From: a virus | Taxonomy: Duplodnaviria > Caudoviricetes | Reading direction: 5' to 3' (one strand) | IMG/VR virus record: IMGVR_UViG_3300023076_000049 | Location: 1 to 33,501 of that record | DNA length: 33,501 nucleotides | Shown: positions 13,134 to 33,501 of the stretch, piece by piece | Layout: every line of letters begins with the position of its first letter | Numbering within the stretch: position 1 is the first letter of the stretch | Translations under genes and position numbers: made by a program | The notes under the pieces: generated by a model | Database searches by the model: none | The model's input: the letters and a program-made list of their open reading frames with translations, nothing else | What the model was told of the DNA's origin: nothing

Positions 13134-14129
13134 CTACAGTGTCAGGGTGATCTGCGCACGCGGACGAGTGCACAGGTGCAGTGGATTGGACTGGGCCTCA
13201 CCGGCCATGCCCTTGTTGAAAGGCAGCGGCTCAATCTTGCTGTAGTAAGGAATGCCCTGGGTATTTACCGTCTCCATGTAATCGGCCGGGGCAAACGCCG
13301 AGATGTACAGGTCGGGCACGCCTTCGGGAATCAACAGCGCCTTGTCGTCATGGACGAATGAAACACCGGCGACCTTGCCACGATAGCGCTCCCATACGAT
13401 GCCACCGAATTCAAAGCTTTCACGGGCATCACCGCGCAGGGCAGCGGCCTGCTGGCTGTTGAGGTAGGTCTCTTTGACCGACTTGTGAACAATCAGTTTG
13501 TTCCAGAAGTTCTTGCCGCAGAATGCCCGCGAGCCGCTGCTGGTAACACTGCCCAGCGCCTCTTCCTGCATGTCCAGCGCCTCACCGGCCTTTACGCGCA
13601 GCTCCGTCGCTGGATCGGCCAACCCCATAGACATGGTTTGACGCTCAACACCAAATGCCTTGTAGATGTCGAGCAAGACGGTTGAACCATCCGCATCGAG
13701 GATCTGACCGTTCAGCGCACCCATGCGTTGGAATTCGTGGGTAGCATCCAGCTGACGGCGAGTCTTGGCGAGCCGCGCGTTAACCACATCCTGCACCGCC
13801 TGCAGTTCAGTGCGAGTACCGAAAGCACGGATGCCTTGAATCTCATCAGCTTTGATGGTGAAACGCTCAGGCAGATGCACGGTGTTGAACGGGATCAGAT
13901 GGCGCTTGGACGCTGCCACCACCAGACCGGACGTACCACGCTCACCAGCAGGTACCAGGGCCAAGGTGTCACCGTCCTTTTCAATCTGCACGGTCAGAGT
14001 GGTGATGCCTTCTTCTTGAAACAGTCCGAGGGCACTGATGCGACCCGGCAAGTAAGGTTGCTCGTTGATGGCTGCGGTCAAGGAAGAAACGCTGAACGCT
14101 TCATCGTCGAAAATGGCGATATCGGCCAT
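13134..14129 (-). CDS. Major capsid protein (lambda gpE family)
   Basis: FSVSSLTAAIN, THEFQRMGAL, FAPADY and AQSNPLHLCTRP motifs. Confidence 0.95.
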   Translation of the reverse strand: MADIAIFDDEAFSVSSLTAAINEQPYLPGRISALGLFQEEGITTLTVQIEKDGDTLALVPAGERGTSGLVVAASKRHLIPFNTVHLPERFTIKADEIQGIRAFGTRTELQAVQDVVNARLAKTRRQLDATHEFQRMGALNGQILDADGSTVLLDIYKAFGVERQTMSMGLADPATELRVKAGEALDMQEEALGSVTSSGSRAFCGKNFWNKLIVHKSVKETYLNSQQAAALRGDARESFEFGGIVWERYRGKVAGVSFVHDDKALLIPEGVPDLYISAFAPADYMETVNTQGIPYYSKIEPLPFNKGMAGEAQSNPLHLCTRPRAQITLTL

Positions 14130-20201: not shown

Positions 20202-20549
20202 TTACTGACCCGGTTCGCCATTGGCGGGAGGCACCGCCGAAACGCCAAGTCGCTTGGCGGCCCAGCGCTCGTACAACCCGATGGCAACATCGGCACCTGC
20301 CATCGCGGTCAGGCAACCGAAGCCACCCGCCGTCCAGATCGAAACACCCGCAGCGTACAGCAACATCATCGTCGACAACCCGCAGACCACACAGGCACCG
20401 GATCGAAGGGCGAGTCGCCGAACCAGCGACCAGCCGTGCATCCCGTCTTTGTCTGCTCGCCACATCTCGCCCGATACGCCGCCGACCAGGGCTAGGACGA
20501 TCACTAACCAGATCGGCATTTCTGCCAACGCTTGTTGCTCTGTTGTCAT
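20202..20549 (-). CDS. Holin (pyocin PA0614-like)
   Basis: Three hydrophobic segments, GGVSGEMWRADK and basic C-terminus; first gene of the late region. Confidence 0.88.
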   Translation of the reverse strand: MTTEQQALAEMPIWLVIVLALVGGVSGEMWRADKDGMHGWSLVRRLALRSGACVVCGLSTMMLLYAAGVSIWTAGGFGCLTAMAGADVAIGLYERWAAKRLGVSAVPPANGEPGQ

Positions 20550-20568
20550 TGCCCCGCCCCTTAAACGC

Positions 20569-20594
20569 AAAAACCCGGCGCAATGGCCGGGTTT
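20569..20594 (-). terminator. tR'-like terminator before holin
   Basis: Minus strand AAACCCGGC-CATTGC-GCCGGGTTT-TT. Confidence 0.7.
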
Positions 20595-20646
20595 GGTGGT
20601 GTGGTGCCTGCCGCTCTATGCGGTCGCACCTATCGAAGATGACTAC

Positions 20647-20675
20647 TTTTTACAGGTCGATTCCGGTGGCAGCAA
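20647..20675 (-). promoter_or_regulatory. Putative late promoter (pR'-like)
   Basis: Minus strand TTGCTG-17 nt-TAAAAA upstream of the terminator and holin. GTGAATATCT direct repeats lie at 20696 and 20728. Confidence 0.45.
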
Positions 20676-20765
20676 GCCTGTTTTAATGCCACCCGGTGAA
20701 TATCTGGTCAACGTCTAGGCAATGTACGTGAATATCTCAAATTCGGCTTCCAGCGCCTCCGGCGC

Positions 20766-21045
20766 TGTCCGGGCTGTCCTACTTTTCGAATCGAAGTAGG
20801 ACACCTGAGAGCACCTAAATTCGGGGGGTTGCCTTACTGTCCTACCTTTTATTACTTCTTTCTCCCGTAAAGAGGGAAAGCTTAAAACACGCTCACGCGC
20901 ACAAGCGCGTGTACGACTCTCGCTATGCTCACACATGAGCGTTGTGTGCGCGGAAAGTTGGACGGTAGGACAGAGCAATGAAAGCGCGGCCCGTGCTCGT
21001 CCGACTGCGTACTGTTGCAGTGGGACAAGCCGAGCCAGTAGGACA
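20766..21045. repeat. Symmetric iteron array (TGTCCTAC), probable replication origin
   Basis: TGTCCTAC at 20775 and 20838; inverted GTAGGACA at 20796, 20965 and 21038; variants at 20766, 20830, 20957, 20998 and 21020. Non-coding and near the primase gene. Confidence 0.65.
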
Positions 21046-21070
21046 AGGGCAGACCGAGCATGGGCTGGCA

Positions 21071-21430
21071 TCAAGCAGCAGCCCCCATCAACATGCCGAA
21101 GATGCAGAGGTGAGCTTCATGCAGGCGCTGGTAATAGGTGTCGCGCCCACAGTCACAGTGGGCATATCGCAGGCGCATATCCACTTCGTAGGTGCAGTAA
21201 TGCTCACGCACCACCTGCTCCAAGAGAGGTTCAAGGTGCTTGGTCACAATCAGCTCGATGTCCAGTGAACCCTCAAGCGGTGCACGGAAAGCACGTCGCC
21301 CGCGAATTAGCTGGCCGTTGCTCTCCATCATCATCGCGACCATGTTGCCGCCTGCGAGACCTCCACTCGTGAAATTGCTATGCAGCTCTTGAGCCCAGGT
21401 ACGTAGGCGTGCATCGATCTCTCTAATCAA
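21071..21430 (-). CDS. PA0613-like putative late regulator / antiterminator with C-terminal HTH
   Basis: GAGGAG SD plus TTG start; IDARLRTWA...VVREHY...CGRDTYYQRLHEAH; Q-equivalent position. Confidence 0.7.
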   Translation of the reverse strand: MIREIDARLRTWAQELHSNFTSGGLAGGNMVAMMMESNGQLIRGRRAFRAPLEGSLDIELIVTKHLEPLLEQVVREHYCTYEVDMRLRYAHCDCGRDTYYQRLHEAHLCIFGMLMGAAA

Positions 21431-23639
21431 AGCACGGCTCCTCGAACTGCTCCTGCACCAGGTTCGACGACCTCCCCCAATCGGCGGGTTTCTTATAGGC
21501 CCAAGGCCGCTGCCCACTTTTAGGTAGAGCCGCAAGCCGGACCTTACGCCAGCCGAGACGATGCATGATCGCCCCAACACGCATTTGCTCGGGTTTGCCC
21601 CAGTGACCGAGGTCGAGCTTGAGAGGACCAGCAAGAATCTCGCTGCCAGTGGCTGTTTCGCCGATCTGCGAGTTCTCCAGCCAATCCAGGATTGGACCTT
21701 CCCACTCGTCCACCACGAACCGCTCTTCCTGTGCGTCCGCAAACAAGGTCGACTCTTCCCGGTTAACCCACCAGATGTCTCCAGATTGATAGCAGAACAT
21801 CGCTTCAGCCCAGAGCTGGTCGCGAACCTCTCTCAGCTTGTCCAGATCCACCTTGGTACACGCCACCGGCCAGTAACGTCGGTTGCCTGTGGCATCTTTG
21901 AGATATTCGTCTTGGTTGGTCGTACCCACGAAAACACACTGGCGTGGCACGTCCATCGTTCTGCGGCCATAGCTCTCGCGGTATGTGTCGGTCGAGGCTG
22001 AGAAGAACTGCTTGGCCTTCGTCGATTCAGCTTTATTGAAGCTGTCCAGCTCGCCGAGCTCGACGATCCATTTACCACGTATGGCCTGAAACCCATCCTT
22101 GTCGCCCAAGGCAAAGGGAGTGTCCATGAACCACTCGCCCCCCAGCACACTCATCGCCGTAGACTTACCAGCACCTTGCGCGCCCTCAAGAATCATCACC
22201 GAGTCGGCCTTGCAGCCTGGCTTCATGACCCGACCAACCGCTGATACCAACCAGCGCTTGCCCACCTTTGAGCTGTATTCCGTGGGAGCGACACCCATGA
22301 TTTCAGTCAACCAGGCCTCAATGCGTGGCACACGATCCCACTCCAGGGCGTTCAGATAATTGCGCACCGGGTGGAATGCATGATCGTGTGCGACCACGCT
22401 CACAGCCTCGATCACGCTGGTGGCTTTGACCCGCAGGTTGTATTGCTGCGCCAGCCACTTCATGACCAACATGTCATCGATGTCTGCCCAATCGCCCACA
22501 CCGCCGCCATAAGGCGCAGCACGCAGCTTGACGATCTTGGAGCTGAAAGCACTAAAGCCGATGACACCAGCCCAGCGCTCGTCGTTACCGAGGATCAGCT
22601 CAACGTTCTGCATGTGCGCAATCAACATACCGTTCTCGGTACGGGCCAGTTGGTCTTTCCAACCGCCCGCAGCTGGTGGTTTGACCACCGCCAACACCTG
22701 ACGGCGAACAGCCTCTAAGCCCTCAGCGCAATGCAGGTCATTGAAGTCCGTCCACTTGTCCTCACGCTCGACGGCAAAGATAGGAGCGACCACCTGACCA
22801 CCGACGACTGTGGCCGCGTTGTCGGCCTTCTCTTTACCAGGGTTCCAGGCATCGCCATTAGGGCGCTTGGTCTTCCAATCGTCATCCCGGCAAACAATGA
22901 TCGGACGACCAGGGAAGCGTTCGCGCATGGTCTTGGCGACCGACATCAAATTGCCCGCATCAAAAGCAATCGCGACCGTTAATGAAGTCGCCATATGCAG
23001 GCTTGCGCCGGTAGCGAATCCTTCACACACCAACACTGGCTCACCCGGCTCAGGGTGCGGCCCGATCAAATGGAAAGCGCCCTCCTTCGACATCCCGTAA
23101 GGCCAGTAGGATTTATCCCGCCCCGTGCTTTCTTGTTTCTCAGGGTAGATCACCTGCAGACCGACGATCTGGTCACGCGCATCACACATCGGAACCAAAA
23201 CCGCGCCGGAGCGCGGAGCATAACGAACACCAAAACCGACGATCTGCTTTCGATCCAGATAAACGCTACGCCCCTTATCAGGCATCCGTTTGAACATTCC
23301 AGCGGCACGGTTAGCAGCGCGCCTCGCCGCGTTGGCCGCAACCTCAGCAGCCCTTCGCTTGGCCTCTTCCTGCCGAGCGCGCATGACCTCACGTTCTTCG
23401 GCGCTCATCTTGCCCGCCTTGACCTTGATCTTATGCGTCTCGCCCGAACGCCAGTCGCCAAAGCTGCCAAAAATCAGCGCATCGCCCTTCTCGGTACGAT
23501 GCTCATGCACTACATACCATCCGTTCTTTTCAGTCCCCTTATCCTGAGAAGTCTTGCAGCGGGTCAGCTTGGCAAAAACCAAGGGCTGCTGGGGCTCCAA
23601 GCCGTAGTCCGCGAACTGGTTCAGCACCTCATCGAGCAT
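21423..23639 (-). CDS. Toprim primase fused to VapE-type helicase
   Basis: CEGFATG, DDD and TDFNDL (Toprim); Walker A GAQGAGKST; FVGTTN and DATGNRRYWP. Confidence 0.93.
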   Translation of the reverse strand: MLDEVLNQFADYGLEPQQPLVFAKLTRCKTSQDKGTEKNGWYVVHEHRTEKGDALIFGSFGDWRSGETHKIKVKAGKMSAEEREVMRARQEEAKRRAAEVAANAARRAANRAAGMFKRMPDKGRSVYLDRKQIVGFGVRYAPRSGAVLVPMCDARDQIVGLQVIYPEKQESTGRDKSYWPYGMSKEGAFHLIGPHPEPGEPVLVCEGFATGASLHMATSLTVAIAFDAGNLMSVAKTMRERFPGRPIIVCRDDDWKTKRPNGDAWNPGKEKADNAATVVGGQVVAPIFAVEREDKWTDFNDLHCAEGLEAVRRQVLAVVKPPAAGGWKDQLARTENGMLIAHMQNVELILGNDERWAGVIGFSAFSSKIVKLRAAPYGGGVGDWADIDDMLVMKWLAQQYNLRVKATSVIEAVSVVAHDHAFHPVRNYLNALEWDRVPRIEAWLTEIMGVAPTEYSSKVGKRWLVSAVGRVMKPGCKADSVMILEGAQGAGKSTAMSVLGGEWFMDTPFALGDKDGFQAIRGKWIVELGELDSFNKAESTKAKQFFSASTDTYRESYGRRTMDVPRQCVFVGTTNQDEYLKDATGNRRYWPVACTKVDLDKLREVRDQLWAEAMFCYQSGDIWWVNREESTLFADAQEERFVVDEWEGPILDWLENSQIGETATGSEILAGPLKLDLGHWGKPEQMRVGAIMHRLGWRKVRLAALPKSGQRPWAYKKPADWGRSSNLVQEQFEEPCFD

Positions 23640-23856
23640 GGCGAGCCCCAACAACCTCATCGATGGACTGGCAGGTCACACACTGAGTGCAGCCGGGCAC
23701 AGCCAAACGGCGAGCCGATGGAATCGGGTCATCACAGCTTTCGCAGAAAAGGAAGGAGTGAGCCGCTACAACAGACTTGGCAAGGGTACGCGCGGCCAGC
23801 GCCTGATCGAGCCGCTCCTGCACGAGGTCATTGGCGAAATCAGCAATATCAGCCAC
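23629..23856 (-). CDS. TraR/DksA C4 zinc-finger protein (PtrB-like)
   Basis: GTG start, N-terminal ADIADFA (DxxD), CESC...IPSARRLAVPGCTQCVTCQ. Confidence 0.9.
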   Translation of the reverse strand: MADIADFANDLVQERLDQALAARTLAKSVVAAHSFLFCESCDDPIPSARRLAVPGCTQCVTCQSIDEVVGARHAR

Positions 23857-24367
23857 GAGCCACCCCCTTAGTCGTTTGGTTGACGTAAGAGGCGCGGTTG
23901 TACATCCCCAACAGCCCTTGGATACCTCGGAAAACCTGCTGACGGATTTCCGCAAGCTCACCATCCTCGACCCGGCCATCGCCAATGTGCTTGGCCCAGG
24001 TCTCGGACAAATCAGCGACTTGACGGAAGAATGACGCGATGCCTGACGTAAGGGTTTCAGGCATGTCACCGGTGTAGGTTTCAGCAAGATCCTGCCAGAT
24101 GGTATCGCCGACCAAGGCATGGACGGCATCCAGGATCCGGCGATCCTTAGTCAGCTCCAGAATTTCAGCAAACTCTTGGATGTTGACAGTGTGGCTCGGG
24201 TGGGTGGGAGAGAGCTTGTGCTGCAAGGTGGTCGCATTGCGGCCGGTGGTGGCAGCAATAGCAGCGGCACCACCAGGATAATCCCGGGCAGCGTGGTAAA
24301 GCGCGAGATCGAGCGGCAGAATTTCCCGCTTTGCACGATCAACGCTATTGAGAGCAATTCGGCTCAT
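23849..24367 (-). CDS. Phage regulatory CII-family protein
   Basis: YPGGAAAIA...TLQHKLSP HTH and DGRVEDGE; downstream of cro. Confidence 0.8.
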   Translation of the reverse strand: MSRIALNSVDRAKREILPLDLALYHAARDYPGGAAAIAATTGRNATTLQHKLSPTHPSHTVNIQEFAEILELTKDRRILDAVHALVGDTIWQDLAETYTGDMPETLTSGIASFFRQVADLSETWAKHIGDGRVEDGELAEIRQQVFRGIQGLLGMYNRASYVNQTTKGVARG

Positions 24368-24389
24368 GGCATTAATCCTTAAAAGTTGC

Positions 24390-24692
24390 CAGTGCCGCGC
24401 GACATGTAGTGGTGATACATTTGCCGCGTGGCTGAGAGGCCCAAACGCCGATAAGGTCCGCAAGACCGAAACCGGCACCGTGCCGAGGCAAACGATCCGT
24501 CGTTCACCTCTGGCGCATTAGCTGCCCGCTCTGTGGTGGAAGAGGCAGCAACACCAAGGCATCCGTGCCTCGGAAAGCGCAATGATGGTCGACGGTTTGC
24601 ATGTGGTGTGCCCGTCTATCTTCATTACGACCCGACAGCGCTGTGGTGGTGCGTGCCGGGAGGAACTGGGCGGCCCATGGGTCGCCTTTTTT
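24390..24692. ncRNA. Candidate structured RNA in the cro-cII intergenic region
   Basis: Almost continuous stem-loops, four with GTGGTG/CACCAC loops; plus-strand terminator at the right end. Confidence 0.5.
24669..24692 (+). terminator. Intrinsic terminator on the strand antisense to cro/cII
   Basis: GGCGGCC-CATG-GGTCGCC-TTTTTT. Confidence 0.65.
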
Positions 24693-24696
24693 CTAG

Positions 24697-24930
24697 CTAT
24701 GCGGTTTGTCGAGACGGAGGTGTTTCAGTGACTCCAAAATGCTCAAGGACCTCGAGGATCGATACCCGCCCCCCGCTTTCGCGTGCCAAGGCTTTGATCA
24801 GCGATACGCTTGGGTCCTTGCTTGCGTATTTTACGTGCAGACGTAGATAGCTAGACGAAATCCCACAGCGTGCTGCGTACCTTGTTACGCCGTCCTGATC
24901 TAATGATGTGATGTATTCAGGTAATGTCAT
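24697..24930 (-). CDS. cro: Cro-like HTH regulator
   Basis: 77 aa HTH (YAARCGISSSYL...PS), GGAGG SD, divergent from the repressor. Confidence 0.85.
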   Translation of the reverse strand: MTLPEYITSLDQDGVTRYAARCGISSSYLRLHVKYASKDPSVSLIKALARESGGRVSILEVLEHFGVTETPPSRQTA

Positions 24931-24951
24931 TGATGTACCTCCCGAACGAAA

Positions 24952-25010
24952 GTTAACCCTTAAGGTTAACCATTGCAACACCTATGTGGACATTCACCTC
25001 AAAGGTTAAT
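24952..25010. promoter_or_regulatory. OR: two repressor operators, TTAACC-N5-GGTTAA
   Basis: TTAACCcttaaGGTTAA (24953-24969) and TTCACCtcaaaGGTTAA (24993-25009). Confidence 0.85.
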
Positions 25011-25027
25011 CCCGCCAAAATCCGATG

Positions 25028-25675
25028 ATGAAAATCTCAGATACTCGATTGCAAAATTTCCGGCGAATTATGGTGGAACGAAACCTTCGCCTGACTGACA
25101 TAGCTGACCTTTTGGGCAAGGCTCCTGCTCAGGTGAGCGCTTTTGGGGGCAAGAATCCTACGAAAGGAATCGGCGACCAGATAGCTCGTGAGATTGAGAA
25201 AGCTCTTGATCTTCACAATGGCTATCTAGATATGCCTTTCGGGTTAGGTGAGTTCAACAACGCGACGGTGCTGAGCCGCACAGGACGAAAATTACCAGTG
25301 ATGGGATCCATAGCAGCTGGAGCTTGGTGCGAACCGGCATTAAATTTTGATCCTGAAGATGCAGAAGAATGGATTGATGCTCCTGGCCCCGTTGGGCCAA
25401 GAGCATTCATATTAAGGATCGAGGGTGTCAGCATGGAACCCAAATTTGTTGAAGGCGATAAAATCGTCATCGATCCCGACCTCGAGGCTCTGCCTGGCCA
25501 TTATGTCGCAGCTAAACGGACAAGGGATCAAGCTGCAACGCTCAAGCAATTAAAGCAGGAAGGCAATGAGCAGTACCTCTACGCATTGAATCCAGACTGG
25601 CCAGAGCGAATCATCCACATGACAGAAGAGTGGAGTATTTGCGGTCGCGCCCGCTGGAAAATTTCAGACCTTTAA
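25028..25675 (+). CDS. cI: CI/PrtR-like repressor (HTH plus S24 autopeptidase)
   Basis: N-terminal HTH, IAAG cleavage site, GVSMEP serine and ATLKQL lysine. The start is at 25025 or 25028. Confidence 0.93.
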   Translation: MKISDTRLQNFRRIMVERNLRLTDIADLLGKAPAQVSAFGGKNPTKGIGDQIAREIEKALDLHNGYLDMPFGLGEFNNATVLSRTGRKLPVMGSIAAGAWCEPALNFDPEDAEEWIDAPGPVGPRAFILRIEGVSMEPKFVEGDKIVIDPDLEALPGHYVAAKRTRDQAATLKQLKQEGNEQYLYALNPDWPERIIHMTEEWSICGRARWKISDL

Positions 25676-25708: not shown

Positions 25709-27061
25709 ATGAAGTACAAGACAAGCGATGTATTTGGTGTCAGAAGCCAATTGATAGAGTCATATATAGAAAGAACGAGTGTCGATGAATTATTCAGCGC
25801 AGCCCTAGAAGAAAAAAACCAAGTAATAGTATACGGCTCCTCTAAACAAGGAAAAACCTCACTAACACTGAAGCACTTAAAGTTAGATGAGTACGTCAAG
25901 ATTGAGTGTTCACCACAGACGCAGACCATTGATATCTACCGATCAATTCTAAGACAATCTAATATAACTTACTTTGAAAGCAATACCCAAGGATTGAGCT
26001 TTGAAGCGTCTTCCAATGTAAACGCGGGAGTCAAAGTCAAGGTTCCATTCCTCGGCGAAGCATCATTAGGTGCCGGTATAGCGGATAAAAGCACAAAAAC
26101 AAGCTCTAACAAAGAACTCTACATAGAATACAACTTAGCGCTTGCTCAAGACGTCTCGGAACTGCTCAAGAAAAAAGAAATTGACAAATTTATAGTGCTT
26201 GAAAACTTCCACTACCTTTCTCTGGAGGTCCAAGAAAGCCTGGCCTATGATCTGCGTGTATTTCAAGACTTAGGCGTGATTTTCATCGTGCTAGGAATCT
26301 GGCGAGAAGCTAACCGCTTGGTACAGTTTAACGGCGATCTTCTGGATCGCGTCACAGAAGTACCTGTAGAGCCATGGCTTGATGAGGACTTCATCAAGGT
26401 AATCCTTAAAGGTTCAAAGCTTCTGAATGTTGACTTCTCTACCGTCCAAGACAGGCTCATTAAATCATCATTTGATAGCGTTGGTGTAGTTCAGGAGTTA
26501 TGCAAACAATGTTGCATATCAGCCGGTGTTACTGAGACTTCATCTGATACTGTAGTCATCACCGATGTGGACCTTGACAGCGCATTAGCTACAAAAGCTG
26601 GAGAGTACGGTGGGCGACATATTCGAAACTTCGAATCCTTTGTTGATATTACACGCAAAACCAGCAATCAAAGTGGTAAACCATCTCTAGCATTCCCTTA
26701 CTATTTTATAAACTTATTGTTGAAAGCTGACCTTGAGAATATTGAGCAGGGCTTATCTCGCTCGAGCCTACTTGAGGGAATCAGAAAAGCGCATCACAGA
26801 GCTGACGATGTACGCTCAGGCGACCTCGGTGCTTTCCTCCATAACATCACCCAACACCAAATCAATAAACGAATTCAGCCCCCTTTCGTAGATTACGATC
26901 GTGGAAGCAAGATTTTGAAAATCATCGATTCTTCACTTTACTTTTTTTTAAGACATTGCGACCGCGACGCCATCCTCGCAGATATCCCGCACCCAATAAT
27001 TGATTACTCCGAAGATTTGCTGTCGGGTCTAGAAGACCCAGAGCATGCACCGAAACCATAG
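25709..27061 (+). CDS. P-loop NTPase (AAA+/STAND-like) cargo gene; candidate anti-phage protein
   Basis: Walker A GSSKQGKTS and Walker B FIVLENF; visibly AT-richer than its neighbours; lies between cI and OL. Confidence 0.8.
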   Translation: MKYKTSDVFGVRSQLIESYIERTSVDELFSAALEEKNQVIVYGSSKQGKTSLTLKHLKLDEYVKIECSPQTQTIDIYRSILRQSNITYFESNTQGLSFEASSNVNAGVKVKVPFLGEASLGAGIADKSTKTSSNKELYIEYNLALAQDVSELLKKKEIDKFIVLENFHYLSLEVQESLAYDLRVFQDLGVIFIVLGIWREANRLVQFNGDLLDRVTEVPVEPWLDEDFIKVILKGSKLLNVDFSTVQDRLIKSSFDSVGVVQELCKQCCISAGVTETSSDTVVITDVDLDSALATKAGEYGGRHIRNFESFVDITRKTSNQSGKPSLAFPYYFINLLLKADLENIEQGLSRSSLLEGIRKAHHRADDVRSGDLGAFLHNITQHQINKRIQPPFVDYDRGSKILKIIDSSLYFFLRHCDRDAILADIPHPIIDYSEDLLSGLEDPEHAPKP

Positions 27062-27081: not shown

Positions 27082-27132
27082 ATCACCCCAAAGGTTAACT
27101 TCTTGACCGAGTTAACCTTTGGGGTTAATAAT
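27082..27132 (+). promoter_or_regulatory. OL operators overlapping a pL-like promoter
   Basis: ATCACCccaaaGGTTAA (27082-27098) and TTAACCtttggGGTTAA (27112-27128) flank -35 TTGACC (27103-27108); a -10-like TAATAAT lies at 27126-27132. Confidence 0.85.
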
Positions 27133-27167
27133 TGCCTCACTCTTCCACCACAGAGCGAGGCAACACC

Positions 27168-27344
27168 ATGCACACCACTGCCACCCTGCACGTCCATCCG
27201 GCCGCTGCTGACCCGTTCCGCATCTTCGAAGTTCGCCGCCTAGCGCGTGAATCAGGCTGCGCATACGTCGCCACCAAAACCAAACCAAAAAGCCGTTACG
27301 CGCCCGTACCGTTCGACCCTAACGACGGAGGCAGGGCAGCATGA
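27168..27344 (+). CDS. Small phage early protein, first gene of the pL operon
   Basis: GAGG SD; 58 aa MHTTATLHVHP...GGRAA; overlaps the next start. Confidence 0.75.
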   Translation: MHTTATLHVHPAAADPFRIFEVRRLARESGCAYVATKTKPKSRYAPVPFDPNDGGRAA

Positions 27345-27932: not shown

Positions 27933-28214
27933 ATGGAACGCGACCTAGAAAAAACCGCTAAGTACTTCGGCCTTACCCGCCCAAAACTGATGCAACTGAT
28001 GCGTGCAAAGGACCTGCTTAAAGGGAACCTGCCCGCCTACCCAGTCCGCGACCGAGCGTACCTGCGGATTAAAGACAGTAGTTGGTATCACGACACCCTG
28101 GGCATGCAGTACAGCCAGTCGACCAGGGTTCGCCAAGCCGGTATCCCCTGGCTTGCGGAGCAACTTGGCCTCGACCTTCCTGCCATTCCGGCAGACAACC
28201 GTGACGTGGCCTAG
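27933..28214 (+). CDS. Antirepressor KilAC-like domain protein
   Basis: GAGGGG SD; AKYFGLTRPKLMQLMR...STRVRQAGIPWL. Confidence 0.7.
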   Translation: MERDLEKTAKYFGLTRPKLMQLMRAKDLLKGNLPAYPVRDRAYLRIKDSSWYHDTLGMQYSQSTRVRQAGIPWLAEQLGLDLPAIPADNRDVA

Positions 28215-28759: not shown

Positions 28760-29083
28760 ATGACCACTAGCCAGAACCAACTGCGCCTTATGCAAGCACC
28801 GGAAGTGGCAACAATCGAGTTGCTCTACCGGACGTTCGGTGACGTGCTGATCCCACTGGAAAAGCTGCGCGAGCACTACTTTCGCAACCTCAATGAACAG
28901 ACCTTCGCCATCGAGATTACGAACGGTCGTATTCAGCTACCGGTGACCACCCTGCATGCGAGCCGCAAGGCTCCCAAGTATGTGCACATTCGTCACGCAG
29001 CAGCCTTGATCGACATTCAGGCCTATCGGGCAGACGAGCAATACGCAAAGACTAAAGAACCGCCGAACGACGACCACCAATAA
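28760..29083 (+). CDS. Pyocin activator PrtN-family protein
   Basis: TIELLYRTFGDVLIPLEKL...YF...SRKAPKYVHIRHAAALID. Confidence 0.8.
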   Translation: MTTSQNQLRLMQAPEVATIELLYRTFGDVLIPLEKLREHYFRNLNEQTFAIEITNGRIQLPVTTLHASRKAPKYVHIRHAAALIDIQAYRADEQYAKTKEPPNDDHQ

Positions 29084-29132
29084 CCGAAATGGCTGTCACC
29101 ACCAGCCGAAAACACCACCAGGAGCACACCAC

Positions 29133-29552
29133 ATGACAACAGCACAGATTTACGCACTGATTGGAATCATCATCCCAGTCGGCCTTCTTTTTTGGTTTGG
29201 CTACATGATGGGAAGGAGCGAAGGCGTAACTCTCGGCCTTAAAAAACGCGAGGACGTCCCACGCGAACAAGACCTGGCCAACATCAAAAAACTTGAAGCC
29301 TCGCTTCAATTCCTGCGCGATGACCACCAACGCCTAGCCAAGCATTGCAAAAGCCTTAAGCAAAGTTTGTCCTTGGGCTTGAAAGAAAAAGAAGCACTGC
29401 TCGACATCGCGGAAAAGCTTCGGATTGCTGCGGAGACGTTCAGCGCGTTCCGCACCGGCAAAAAACTTCACCAGGATTGCCTGAGCCTGCGAAAGCAAGC
29501 TCTGGAGATGGCCGCACTTCTGCAGGCAACAGAGCAGGAGCAAGCAGCATGA
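29133..29552 (+). CDS. Membrane-anchored coiled-coil phage protein
   Basis: N-terminal TM helix; AGGAG SD. Confidence 0.75.
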   Translation: MTTAQIYALIGIIIPVGLLFWFGYMMGRSEGVTLGLKKREDVPREQDLANIKKLEASLQFLRDDHQRLAKHCKSLKQSLSLGLKEKEALLDIAEKLRIAAETFSAFRTGKKLHQDCLSLRKQALEMAALLQATEQEQAA

Positions 29553-32034: not shown

Positions 32035-32349
32035 TCAAGCCATCGCCCTATACTCAGACAATTGATGAAATCTATCGTTAATCACGAACTTAATTATCGA
32101 TTTCACTTCGTCAGAGCAGTTTCTGAAAGAAATTTTCGAAACCACGCTCCGCCCGCGGCGCAGCACCAGATCGCCTACCAGCTCATCGACAAACGATTGC
32201 GTGGCGTCTCTGTTCGAAAAATCAATGACAACGGTGCTTCCGCCATCCAACTGTTTTTCGATTTGCTTTCGAAATGGAGTCGCAGAAGCCCTCATACCCA
32301 GCGTGCGAACGGTCTCTGACCCTGCCGCCAAACTAATTAGGGTTTGCAT
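32035..32349 (-). CDS. STAS-like domain protein (DUF4325-like)
   Basis: VVIDFSNRDATQSFVDELVG; GAGGA SD before ATG 32349. Confidence 0.82.
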   Translation of the reverse strand: MQTLISLAAGSETVRTLGMRASATPFRKQIEKQLDGGSTVVIDFSNRDATQSFVDELVGDLVLRRGRSVVSKISFRNCSDEVKSIIKFVINDRFHQLSEYRAMA

Positions 32350-32439
32350 GACACTTTTCCTCAGTGATGTTGCGCATACACATGTATCGGTGTGACGTGC
32401 CAATGATTTAGCTGAGACAGCAATTAAATCGATTCGGCA

Positions 32440-33501
32440 TCAATCATCGAAATTTATTTCCTCGTCCAAGGTACCTTCAACCGCTGGCAGCAAGGATGGA
32501 ATATCAATTTTTGGCAGGAGGTCTCTGTTGCACTCAAATGCTATGGCAACACCCTTCCAAGGGCAATCGTCAATCTGCCCCTCGCCTTTGTCTCCGGTTC
32601 GCATCCACGCCTTCCCGCTGCCAATCACAAGAAACCCATCCGCAGCAGCAGCAATCTTAGCAGTCGTAGTGAGTCCAACGCCTTGATTTTGGCTATCGCT
32701 GTCATAGGAGATAAGTGCTCCTCGATTGCAGCTGACCCTCTCAATGAGAGCAATCTGGATCGCCCTAAGATCAGTCCTTTCGTTGAGCATAGCGTGATCC
32801 TTGAGAGTCGCTAAGAATCCACAGCCGTTATCAACGATAGCTAACCTGACAGAACCATGAGTTTTGAAATGCTGGCAAGCTACCCATACGGAAGCGTTTA
32901 AATTACCGTCTTTTTTTGCATGGGACAATGCATTCTCAAGAAGCTCCTTGAGAGCATACTCAAGAGGGCGACGGTAAGGCTCCATTTCTTCTGCGGTATC
33001 GGGGTTGTCTTTTATGCCTGTCATGGCATGAACCAACCTGGAGGCGACAACCTCAGACTGCTCCGCATTTGTTACTTCAGTCAGTTCGACGCAATTATCG
33101 GGTTCACCCTGGGGGTTCCGCCCGACTTCTGGATCAAACCCGTCCACATCCAAGCCAACGAAGAAATCCATCCGGATCAGATACGCAAGCATGTCATTAG
33201 ACATGAAGCGACAGTACATCTCATGATCATCAGGACGAGCGTCGAGAGTCGCCCTCAGTGTCGCCAGTCCGATTGGATCGATGAATTGAAATTCAGACGC
33301 ATCCAGTACAACGACACCATCACAATTTTTGATTTTATTGCAAAAATCGAAAATCGCAGCCGGGTCTGAGGCGCTCAGCGTCTTTGGAAACCAAATCGCA
33401 TCTTCCGTAGAAAGGTAACCCTGGTCGATCACAGCTTCTTCCCTGAAAAAAATCGGTGCGCGACTATATCTGTCTGGCATCGTGACATCAATGAAATTCA
33501 A
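32440..33501 (-). CDS. STAS-like plus HATPase_c (GHKL) kinase-like protein; start uncertain at the window edge
   Basis: VVLDASEFQFIDPIG; N box ELLENALSHA, G1 IVDNGCG and G2 QGVGL. Confidence 0.82.
   Translation of the reverse strand: MNFIDVTMPDRYSRAPIFFREEAVIDQGYLSTEDAIWFPKTLSASDPAAIFDFCNKIKNCDGVVVLDASEFQFIDPIGLATLRATLDARPDDHEMYCRFMSNDMLAYLIRMDFFVGLDVDGFDPEVGRNPQGEPDNCVELTEVTNAEQSEVVASRLVHAMTGIKDNPDTAEEMEPYRRPLEYALKELLENALSHAKKDGNLNASVWVACQHFKTHGSVRLAIVDNGCGFLATLKDHAMLNERTDLRAIQIALIERVSCNRGALISYDSDSQNQGVGLTTTAKIAAAADGFLVIGSGKAWMRTGDKGEGQIDDCPWKGVAIAFECNRDLLPKIDIPSLLPAVEGTLDEEINFDD

Follow-up and report, generated by a model that had tools for sequence, protein, structure and literature searches.

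Gene content of the locus

The window (the whole 33,501-nt stretch of DNA that was analyzed) is a phage record whose relatives are Pseudomonas prophages. A cII-like and a cro-like gene on the minus strand, separated by a noncoding gap, are followed by a divergent cI-like repressor gene (Table 1). On the pR side, a DksA-like gene and a primase lie beyond cII. The pL side contains a gene for a 58-amino-acid (aa) protein (the 58-aa gene), KilAC-, AlpA-, and PrtN-like genes, a gene for a 139-aa protein (the 139-aa gene), and an integrase gene; phage H4907 also has an annotated KilAC gene within its pL operon. GGTTAAC-type palindromes, repeated at 24950 to 25010 (pR/pRM) and 27092 to 27126 (pL), are likely repressor operators. 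A low-GC gene for a 450-aa ATPase-like protein, with weak matches to AAA_22 and nSTAND6, lies between cI and pL (25709 to 27061) and may be a moron-like gene, possibly one for defense. Past the integrase are a STAS-like gene and a gene for an ATP-binding protein (32035 to 33501, minus strand). The order of repressor, DksA-like, small, and holin genes (20202 to 25675), together with the PrtN gene on the other side (28760 to 29083), is reminiscent of the R/F pyocin regulatory locus. PF11112 was present in 48 of 151 family genomes.

The 58-aa product of the first pL gene is a small, basic protein with a predicted beta-alpha-beta core (pLDDT 75), an HP motif, and a C-terminal GGxAA, which looks like a degradation tag. 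It belongs to a family conserved from Pseudomonas to Halomonadaceae but had no match in Pfam, NCBIfam, PDB, or BFVD, N-family proteins included, and the gene was found in 2 of the 400 genomes scored in a class-wide search.

Of 217 loci with cII that were compared, 200 also contained the small gene; of these, 195 could be used, including 183 distinct ones. Phages with other loop words were added by using a Halomonas copy of the small gene as a query. Leader and protein features sorted the 183 loci into groups A (117 loci), B (37), C (9), and D (13), six Halomonadaceae loci, and one other. The arrangement described below also occurs in the cultured phages Haddon, LPPA36, vB_Pae_U5, Meadow, and H4907.

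Table 1. Positions of genes, RNA elements, and candidate target sites in the window
Feature	Position	Strand	Evidence or remarks
Possible late-leader target	20595-20607	-	Just before terminator-like hairpin ahead of holin gene
cII-like gene	23849-24367	-	PF06892 Phage_CP76 (E 2.1e-22), phrog_101
Inverted repeat TGGCA-N15-TGCCA over cII ribosome-binding site	24367-24391		Half-sites near -59 and -39
Hairpin H4 in cII leader	24394-24432	-	Overlaps promoter; loop outside predicted antisense RNA
Extended -10-like box TGATACATT of pE-like promoter	24413-24421	+	Sequence
Predicted antisense RNA, about 265 nt	24428-24692	+	Start placed from -10 position; end at U-tract
Hairpin G2	24481-24515	ACGGAU loop on -	Double change in 4/17 pairs
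Hairpin H3' (loop a')	24521-24549	+	UGUGGUG at 24532-24538; 17-18 nt complementary to pL leader hairpin
Hairpin G1	24554-24573	CGGA loop on -, UCCG on +	Double change in 8/8 pairs
Hairpin H2' (loop b')	24578-24629	+	24600-24611 complementary to Shine-Dalgarno-to-AUG spacer plus AUG; compensatory pairs
Hairpin H1' (third loop)	24631-24660	+	UGUGGUG at 24642-24648; double change in 3/10 pairs
Intrinsic terminator ending predicted antisense RNA, before cro	24668-24692	+	Sequence fold; G-U pairs
cro-like gene	24697-24948	-	phrog_35 (E 5.5e-6)
cI-like repressor gene	25025-25675	+	phrog_4
Target a1, hairpin at predicted pL transcript start	27134-27161	+	3' arm contains Shine-Dalgarno of first gene
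58-aa first pL gene	27168-27344	+	phrog_35204, phrog_13491; function unassigned
Target b1, first codons of 58-aa gene	27170-27178	+	99/117 group A loci
KilAC/antirepressor-like gene, third of pL operon	27936-28214	+	PF03374 (E 2.3e-4; 21.9 bits, under Pfam cutoff of 25.3)
Target a2, small hairpin upstream of 139-aa gene	29091-29107	+	102/108 long group A loci
Target b2, spacer plus AUG of 139-aa gene	29124-29135	+	88/108 long group A loci
139-aa gene, predicted membrane-anchored	29133-29552	+	phrog_28176

Structure and conservation of the cro-cII gap

The first-pass annotation had described four hairpins with CACCAC loops in the gap, a -10-like box, and a plus-strand terminator, and each of these was found on the sequence where it had been placed. 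We refer to the hairpins as H1 to H4 on the minus strand, the sense strand of the pR transcript, and mark their plus-strand counterparts with a prime. The gap had also been said to fold almost throughout. The minus strand of 24380 to 24700 gave a folding z-score of -3.48, with 0 of 100 shuffles as good; for the plus strand the z-score was -1.70, with 7 of 100 shuffles as good. Across 38 gaps the z-scores were mostly negative for both strands and offered no choice between them.

Stem conservation was examined in an alignment (A1) derived from 139 loci with a usable gap, which were reduced to 33 representatives at 93% identity. The final version had 35 rows after L138 was removed and the window, L136, and L132 were added, and its structure was edited by hand. 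Changes on both sides were seen in 32 of the 90 pairs, a number reached by 0 of 500 shuffles and compared with 6 to 14 double-change pairs when the structure was slid out of register; both kinds of control leave the relatedness among rows in place. Rfam gave no gathering-level match in the window or in six homologous loci (two chance matches had E values of 0.96 and 6.4). The cro-cII gap is a real, conserved RNA element that is not cataloged in Rfam.

The initial description stood as to the position of the hairpins but not as to two of its details. A long-range helix (24483/24566), proposed to close a multibranch, was not conserved: 69.6% of its cells were paired, and double changes occurred in one of eight pairs, which is no better than in shuffles. 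One of its arms instead pairs locally to form G1, with a CGGA loop and double changes in every pair. Nor is a single loop motif common to all four hairpins. Among 124 distinct gaps, with six divergent loci left out, CACCACA was present in H1 of 124, H2 of 120, H3 of 124, and H4 of none; H4 keeps CACCAC in 121 of the 124. This rules out one RNA with four equal loops. The loop of H4 also lies upstream of the predicted antisense start, and it is possible that H4 is an extra target of the antisense RNA.

The YGGA loop of G1 is kept in about 120 of 127 gaps. On the sense strand, ANGGA is fitted by G2 in about 120 of the 127 gaps and by G1 in 87, and these are the only two GGA loops. Both hairpins occur in group A and in Haddon; the short gaps of group B and Halomonadaceae that were displayed have neither. 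We take their YGGA loops on the pR strand to resemble RsmA/RsmE sites; the opposite strand reads UCCG in each. A 14-nt exact copy of part of G1 was noticed post hoc at 13825 to 13838 (plus strand) in the window, in a stem on the noncoding strand of a late gene; 0.03 copies of that pattern would be expected by chance. In a Pseudomonas guariconensis locus (L131, 6400 to 7000), the hairpin train is apparently duplicated in tandem, giving seven loop hairpins.

G-U pairs had further been said to leave the strand undecided. Taken together this is correct, but the individual hairpins are not neutral. In A1, G-U pairs favored the minus strand in H1, G1, G2, and H4 and the plus strand in the terminator (23 of 35 rows), while H2 and H3 were about even. 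Counts of G-U versus A-C pairs for the sense strand were 24:8 in H1, 9:5 in G1, and 111:5 in G2, the last coming mostly from a few near-invariant pairs; H4 had 46 G-U pairs on the minus strand against 5. Mismatches flanking the loop-target matches described below showed no G-U bias (54:53). Folded alone, the 265-nt antisense RNA of the window had a z-score of -1.27 (22 of 200 shuffles as good). Opening a loop would cost 1.8 to 2.3 kcal/mol in the antisense RNA and about 0 in the sense RNA. The sense strand, which would be transcribed from pR, probably has a role as well.

A predicted CII-activated promoter and antisense RNA

The inverted repeat over the cII ribosome-binding site, in which four of five pairs are invariant in A1, is likely a CII binding site. 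In 107 of 117 group A loci it lies exactly 24 nt before the best -10 box. The spacing is identical in 36 of 37 group B loci, although their inverted repeat is not the one of group A. The same spacing was found in five of nine group C loci and a spacing of 24 to 25 nt in 9 of 13 group D loci, while the Halomonadaceae calls were scattered. The CII protein of phage 186 occupies an inverted repeat at -38/-58 of pE, a promoter that faces pR (PMC6593788). Because the half-sites in the window, at about -39/-59 from a start near 24428, match those of 186, we infer that a CII-activated promoter with the geometry of 186 pE faces back through the gap. As in 186, a CP76-family CII is encoded next to it, the two halves of the repeat are two helical turns apart, and the promoter is convergent on pR. 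The transcripts of 186 pE and lambda pRE serve to make CI, whereas the transcript predicted here has loops that fit other mRNAs and would, in group A, be stopped by a terminator before cro and cI.

This terminator was found in 110 of 117 group A loci, compared with 5 of 37 in group B, 0 of 9 in C, 2 of 13 in D, and 1 of 6 in Halomonadaceae, all by a loose scan. Among the group A loci that were folded, the predicted antisense RNA had a median length of 265 nt, and its consensus fold presents three identical UGUGGUG loops (conservation index, 0.74 against 0.66).

Matches between gap loops and distant sites

The gap sequences recur in the pL region of the window. An 18-nt stretch of H3 is identical to part of the leader hairpin of the predicted pL transcript (27140 to 27157), and a 12-nt stretch of H2 is repeated after the Shine-Dalgarno sequence of the 139-aa gene, up to and including its ATG. 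In a pairing scan of both window strands that included opening costs and scored 14 of 339 candidates, the top two partners of the antisense RNA were 27141 to 27157 (-25.4 kcal/mol) and 29124 to 29135 (-15.4 kcal/mol). These two sites lie on the pL mRNA strand, and the sense RNA paired best with their noncoding strands. The a1 hairpin is preceded by a promoter-like site (27103 to 27132), and its loop motif is present in 115 of 117 group A loci. The earlier sequence-only reading had missed the target sites at 27140 to 27178, 29091 to 29135, and 20595 to 20607, as well as the inverted repeat that resembles a CII site.

The possible late-leader target has CACCAC in 83 of 97 group A loci. It was outside the top 18 of the pairing scan in the window, and it tracks the H1 variant weakly, with an own-phage match of 9.93 versus 9.60 when permuted (0 of 300 permutations). 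In other phage groups the targets are the small first gene, genes for membrane-anchored proteins, and a phrog_204/DUF2303 pair. Two Halomonadaceae loci have a b word between the Shine-Dalgarno sequence and ATG of an additional gene on the pR side, about 4,655 nt (L141) and 5,004 nt (L142) downstream of the cII start; L142 has the matched variant.

When sequences are compared across phage groups, loop and target letters change together. The longest match of a gap to its own leader was about 9 to 13 nt, and matches across groups were mostly 6 to 8 nt; the exceptions were a b word common to group A and Halomonadaceae and another common to groups B, C, and D. When own a1 pairs were compared with 2,000 permutations within groups, none of the permutations did as well in B, C, or D; the effect was weak in A (51) and not significant in Halomonadaceae. 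For b1, the counts among 2,000 permutations were 14 in A and a marginal 83 in Halomonadaceae, and there was no significance within B, C, or D. In 34 of 37 group B loci, the variable letter of the a loop agrees with the pL loop; in 5 of 13 group D loci, the last loop letter is mismatched.

The two words also vary separately. Three loci have AACCAAA in H2; in all three, both b targets are changed alike and the a sites retain CACCAC, whereas 0 of 109 loci with CACCACA in H2 show this change in their b targets. The three loci may share one origin, yet one of them (L107) has an unrelated cII. H4907, from another host family, shows the same b change, its AACCAA form giving matches of 13, 13, and 14 nt. 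The isolated phage Haddon has matches of 15, 10, 12, and 11 nt, and Meadow has b matches; Ralstonia phage Dina, with a distant CII, had no such loop-target matches when examined.

In 156 loci, which are not independent and from which 27 others had been dropped for want of a called b word, the b word of the gap occurred 180 times on the pL mRNA strand, 147 of these directly between a Shine-Dalgarno sequence and ATG; the corresponding numbers for the opposite strand were 5 and 0. The loop-target matches extend into stem letters and over the AUG, the b targets are not hairpins, and loop size varies. Within group A, 111 loci fell into eight cro clusters with identical loops.

Two interpretations had been offered for the element, an antisense RNA of about 265 nt presenting GUGGUG loops or a multivalent nut/put-like site in the pR transcript. 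The conserved promoter and terminator and the covarying targets favor the antisense RNA, albeit with three loops rather than four, and leave the nut/put-like site the weaker option.

Comparison with known phage regulators

The first-pass annotation had compared the element with P1 C4 and P4 CI RNA. The likeness appears to hold for the predicted way of working and failed in tests of model, size, and position. Loops of the c4 RNA of P1/P7, which is 77 nt long (PMC12197685), pair near the ribosome-binding site of ant (PMC12197685, PMC8201110) and lower antirepressor output (PMC12197685). As with c4, the small first gene has two target boxes and precedes a KilAC-like gene (whose match here is below the Pfam cutoff), and the pairing letters differ among phage groups. 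Compared with c4 (RF01695) and c4-2, at about 77 to 90 nt, the RNA predicted here is much longer and has three loops. The C4 covariance model gave no match up to E 10 in 24000 to 25100 and no gathering-level match in the window or the six homologous loci. Whereas c4 lies upstream of its targets in the immI operon, the RNA here would come from the opposite strand of the cro-cII gap, 2.5 to 4.5 kb from its targets; it is also likely CII driven and would target later genes as well.

P4 CI, of the seqA/seqC immunity system, is likewise a lysogeny-favoring antisense RNA that has multiple target sites, as is predicted here. In P4, CI is processed from the transcript that it controls, with sites on either side, and acts on termination (PMC4825925); here the RNA and its targets are on separate transcripts (pL and late). 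The lysis-lysogeny circuits of lambda and P22 contain the antisense RNAs OOP and aQ (lambda) and sar (P22), of which OOP and aQ are described as cis acting in PMC12197685. Each of the three has one target gene, unlike the RNA predicted here with its several loops and several distant targets. As with lambda N and its nutL and nutR sites, and with HK022 put, hairpins in the two early transcripts match each other, the loops are phage specific, and the first pL gene is small. The element differs in having two independently varying words and linear targets over start codons, and no N-like protein match was found. Some a sites start with CTCT, which we take to be boxA-like; this CTCT forms part of a stem, and other sites lack it. 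In lambda, aQ is made from a CII-activated promoter.

We found no description of the element in the literature, most subscription papers being outside the reach of the search. Passages of the Weinberg surveys (PMC2864571, PMC5737381) name c4, c4-a1b1, and c4-2, and no motif in them could be tied to the gap element. Six supplement files of PMC10690425 had no match to motif terms; the element may still be an unnamed one among the candidate RNAs of that paper. A term search of the H4907 paper (PMC10580944) and PMC11131426 returned no antisense, noncoding, or small RNA terms. The uncataloged gap element most likely belongs with the phage antisense regulators, a known kind.

Proposed mechanism and alternatives

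We suggest, with a probability of about 0.7, that the gap encodes an antisense RNA that is driven by CII and represses early-left genes much as c4 would, while falling outside the C4 family. CII would bind the inverted repeat and fire the pE-like promoter, yielding the 265-nt RNA in group A; in loci without the terminator, the antisense RNA would be the 5' leader of a transcript running on towards cI. Loop a' would pair with the pL leader loop. Loop b' would base pair over the AUG or the initial codons, both of the 58-aa gene and of one to three genes farther on, and thereby prevent initiation. By analogy to c4 and CI, leaving the small first gene untranslated would lower expression of the KilAC-like and excisionase-like genes behind it and so favor lysogeny. 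The pR transcript, being the full complement of the antisense RNA, could take part in mutual neutralization.

Alternatively, a phage protein, with the 58-aa product the most plausible one, might bind the loops on the sense strand, acting as in an N/nut system or as a translational repressor with a multisite decoy. We consider this improbable, though less so than the two alternatives that follow. Such a protein would account for hairpins of the same sense at the pL start and after cro, as with nutL and nutR, and for the site just ahead of the late terminator. The first pL gene also encodes a small, basic protein ending in AA, and the G-U bias of H1, G2, and H4 is on the sense strand. The small-protein tree follows the motif groups where a break had been expected, but the test is partly circular, as the leader adjoins the gene and protein features helped to name the groups. 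Pairing is favored over a protein reader because the a and b words vary separately, each with its own targets, so that one change per loop suffices. Linear b targets that include the AUG, and a variable loop length and register, also argue against a protein, as do the occurrence of two divergent protein subtypes with one motif within group A and a 58-aa fold that matches no RNA-binding protein in PDB or BFVD.

It is less likely again that the antisense RNA pairs as proposed but chiefly opens the pL leader hairpin, freeing the Shine-Dalgarno sequence, or steers termination in the late leader and pL operon. The a1 stem does hold the Shine-Dalgarno sequence, its upper part would be unzipped by the a' duplex, and the late-leader site adjoins a terminator; Gifsy-1 IsrK activates translation by such opening, and termination is the step controlled by P4 CI (PMC4825925). 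A b' duplex over spacer and AUG, at the 147 sites counted, would hardly be activating, however, and increased lytic gene expression from an RNA under CII control would run counter to the known role of CII. Least probable, in our view, is a host-factor role for the sense structure, with RsmA/RsmE acting at the GGA loops or Rho at the C-rich ones, the matches elsewhere being products of duplication or gene conversion. The conserved YGGA loops of G1 and G2 on the sense strand would fit, and lambda has Rho sites in its cro-cII gap. A host factor, however, would have no need of the phage-specific words that distant sites share in each of at least five motif groups. The A of ANGGA is missing from roughly one G1 loop in four, and the short group B and Halomonadaceae gaps displayed have no GGA hairpins.

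Implications

If the antisense repressor reading is correct, the gap would contribute an undescribed RNA layer to the lysis-or-dormancy decision. In the textbook lambda-type switch, the CII-driven transcript exists to make repressor. A widespread group of temperate Pseudomonas and Halomonas phages would reuse such a transcript as a multitarget regulatory RNA with a loop code. A bolder and quite tentative proposal is that CII promotes dormancy mainly via this multiloop RNA rather than via new repressor, with the establishment transcript, which in group A would end before cI, silencing several early-left genes at once and the RNA defining immunity groups. Since phages with different cro genes share loops, the RNA of a prophage could act on incoming relatives, and immunity groups defined by RNA would then extend across Pseudomonadaceae and Halomonadaceae. 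The natural matched loop-target variants are well suited to allele-specific tests. If repression by pairing is the function of the element, its targets would also flag a handful of unannotated small genes as those that the phage most needs kept off.
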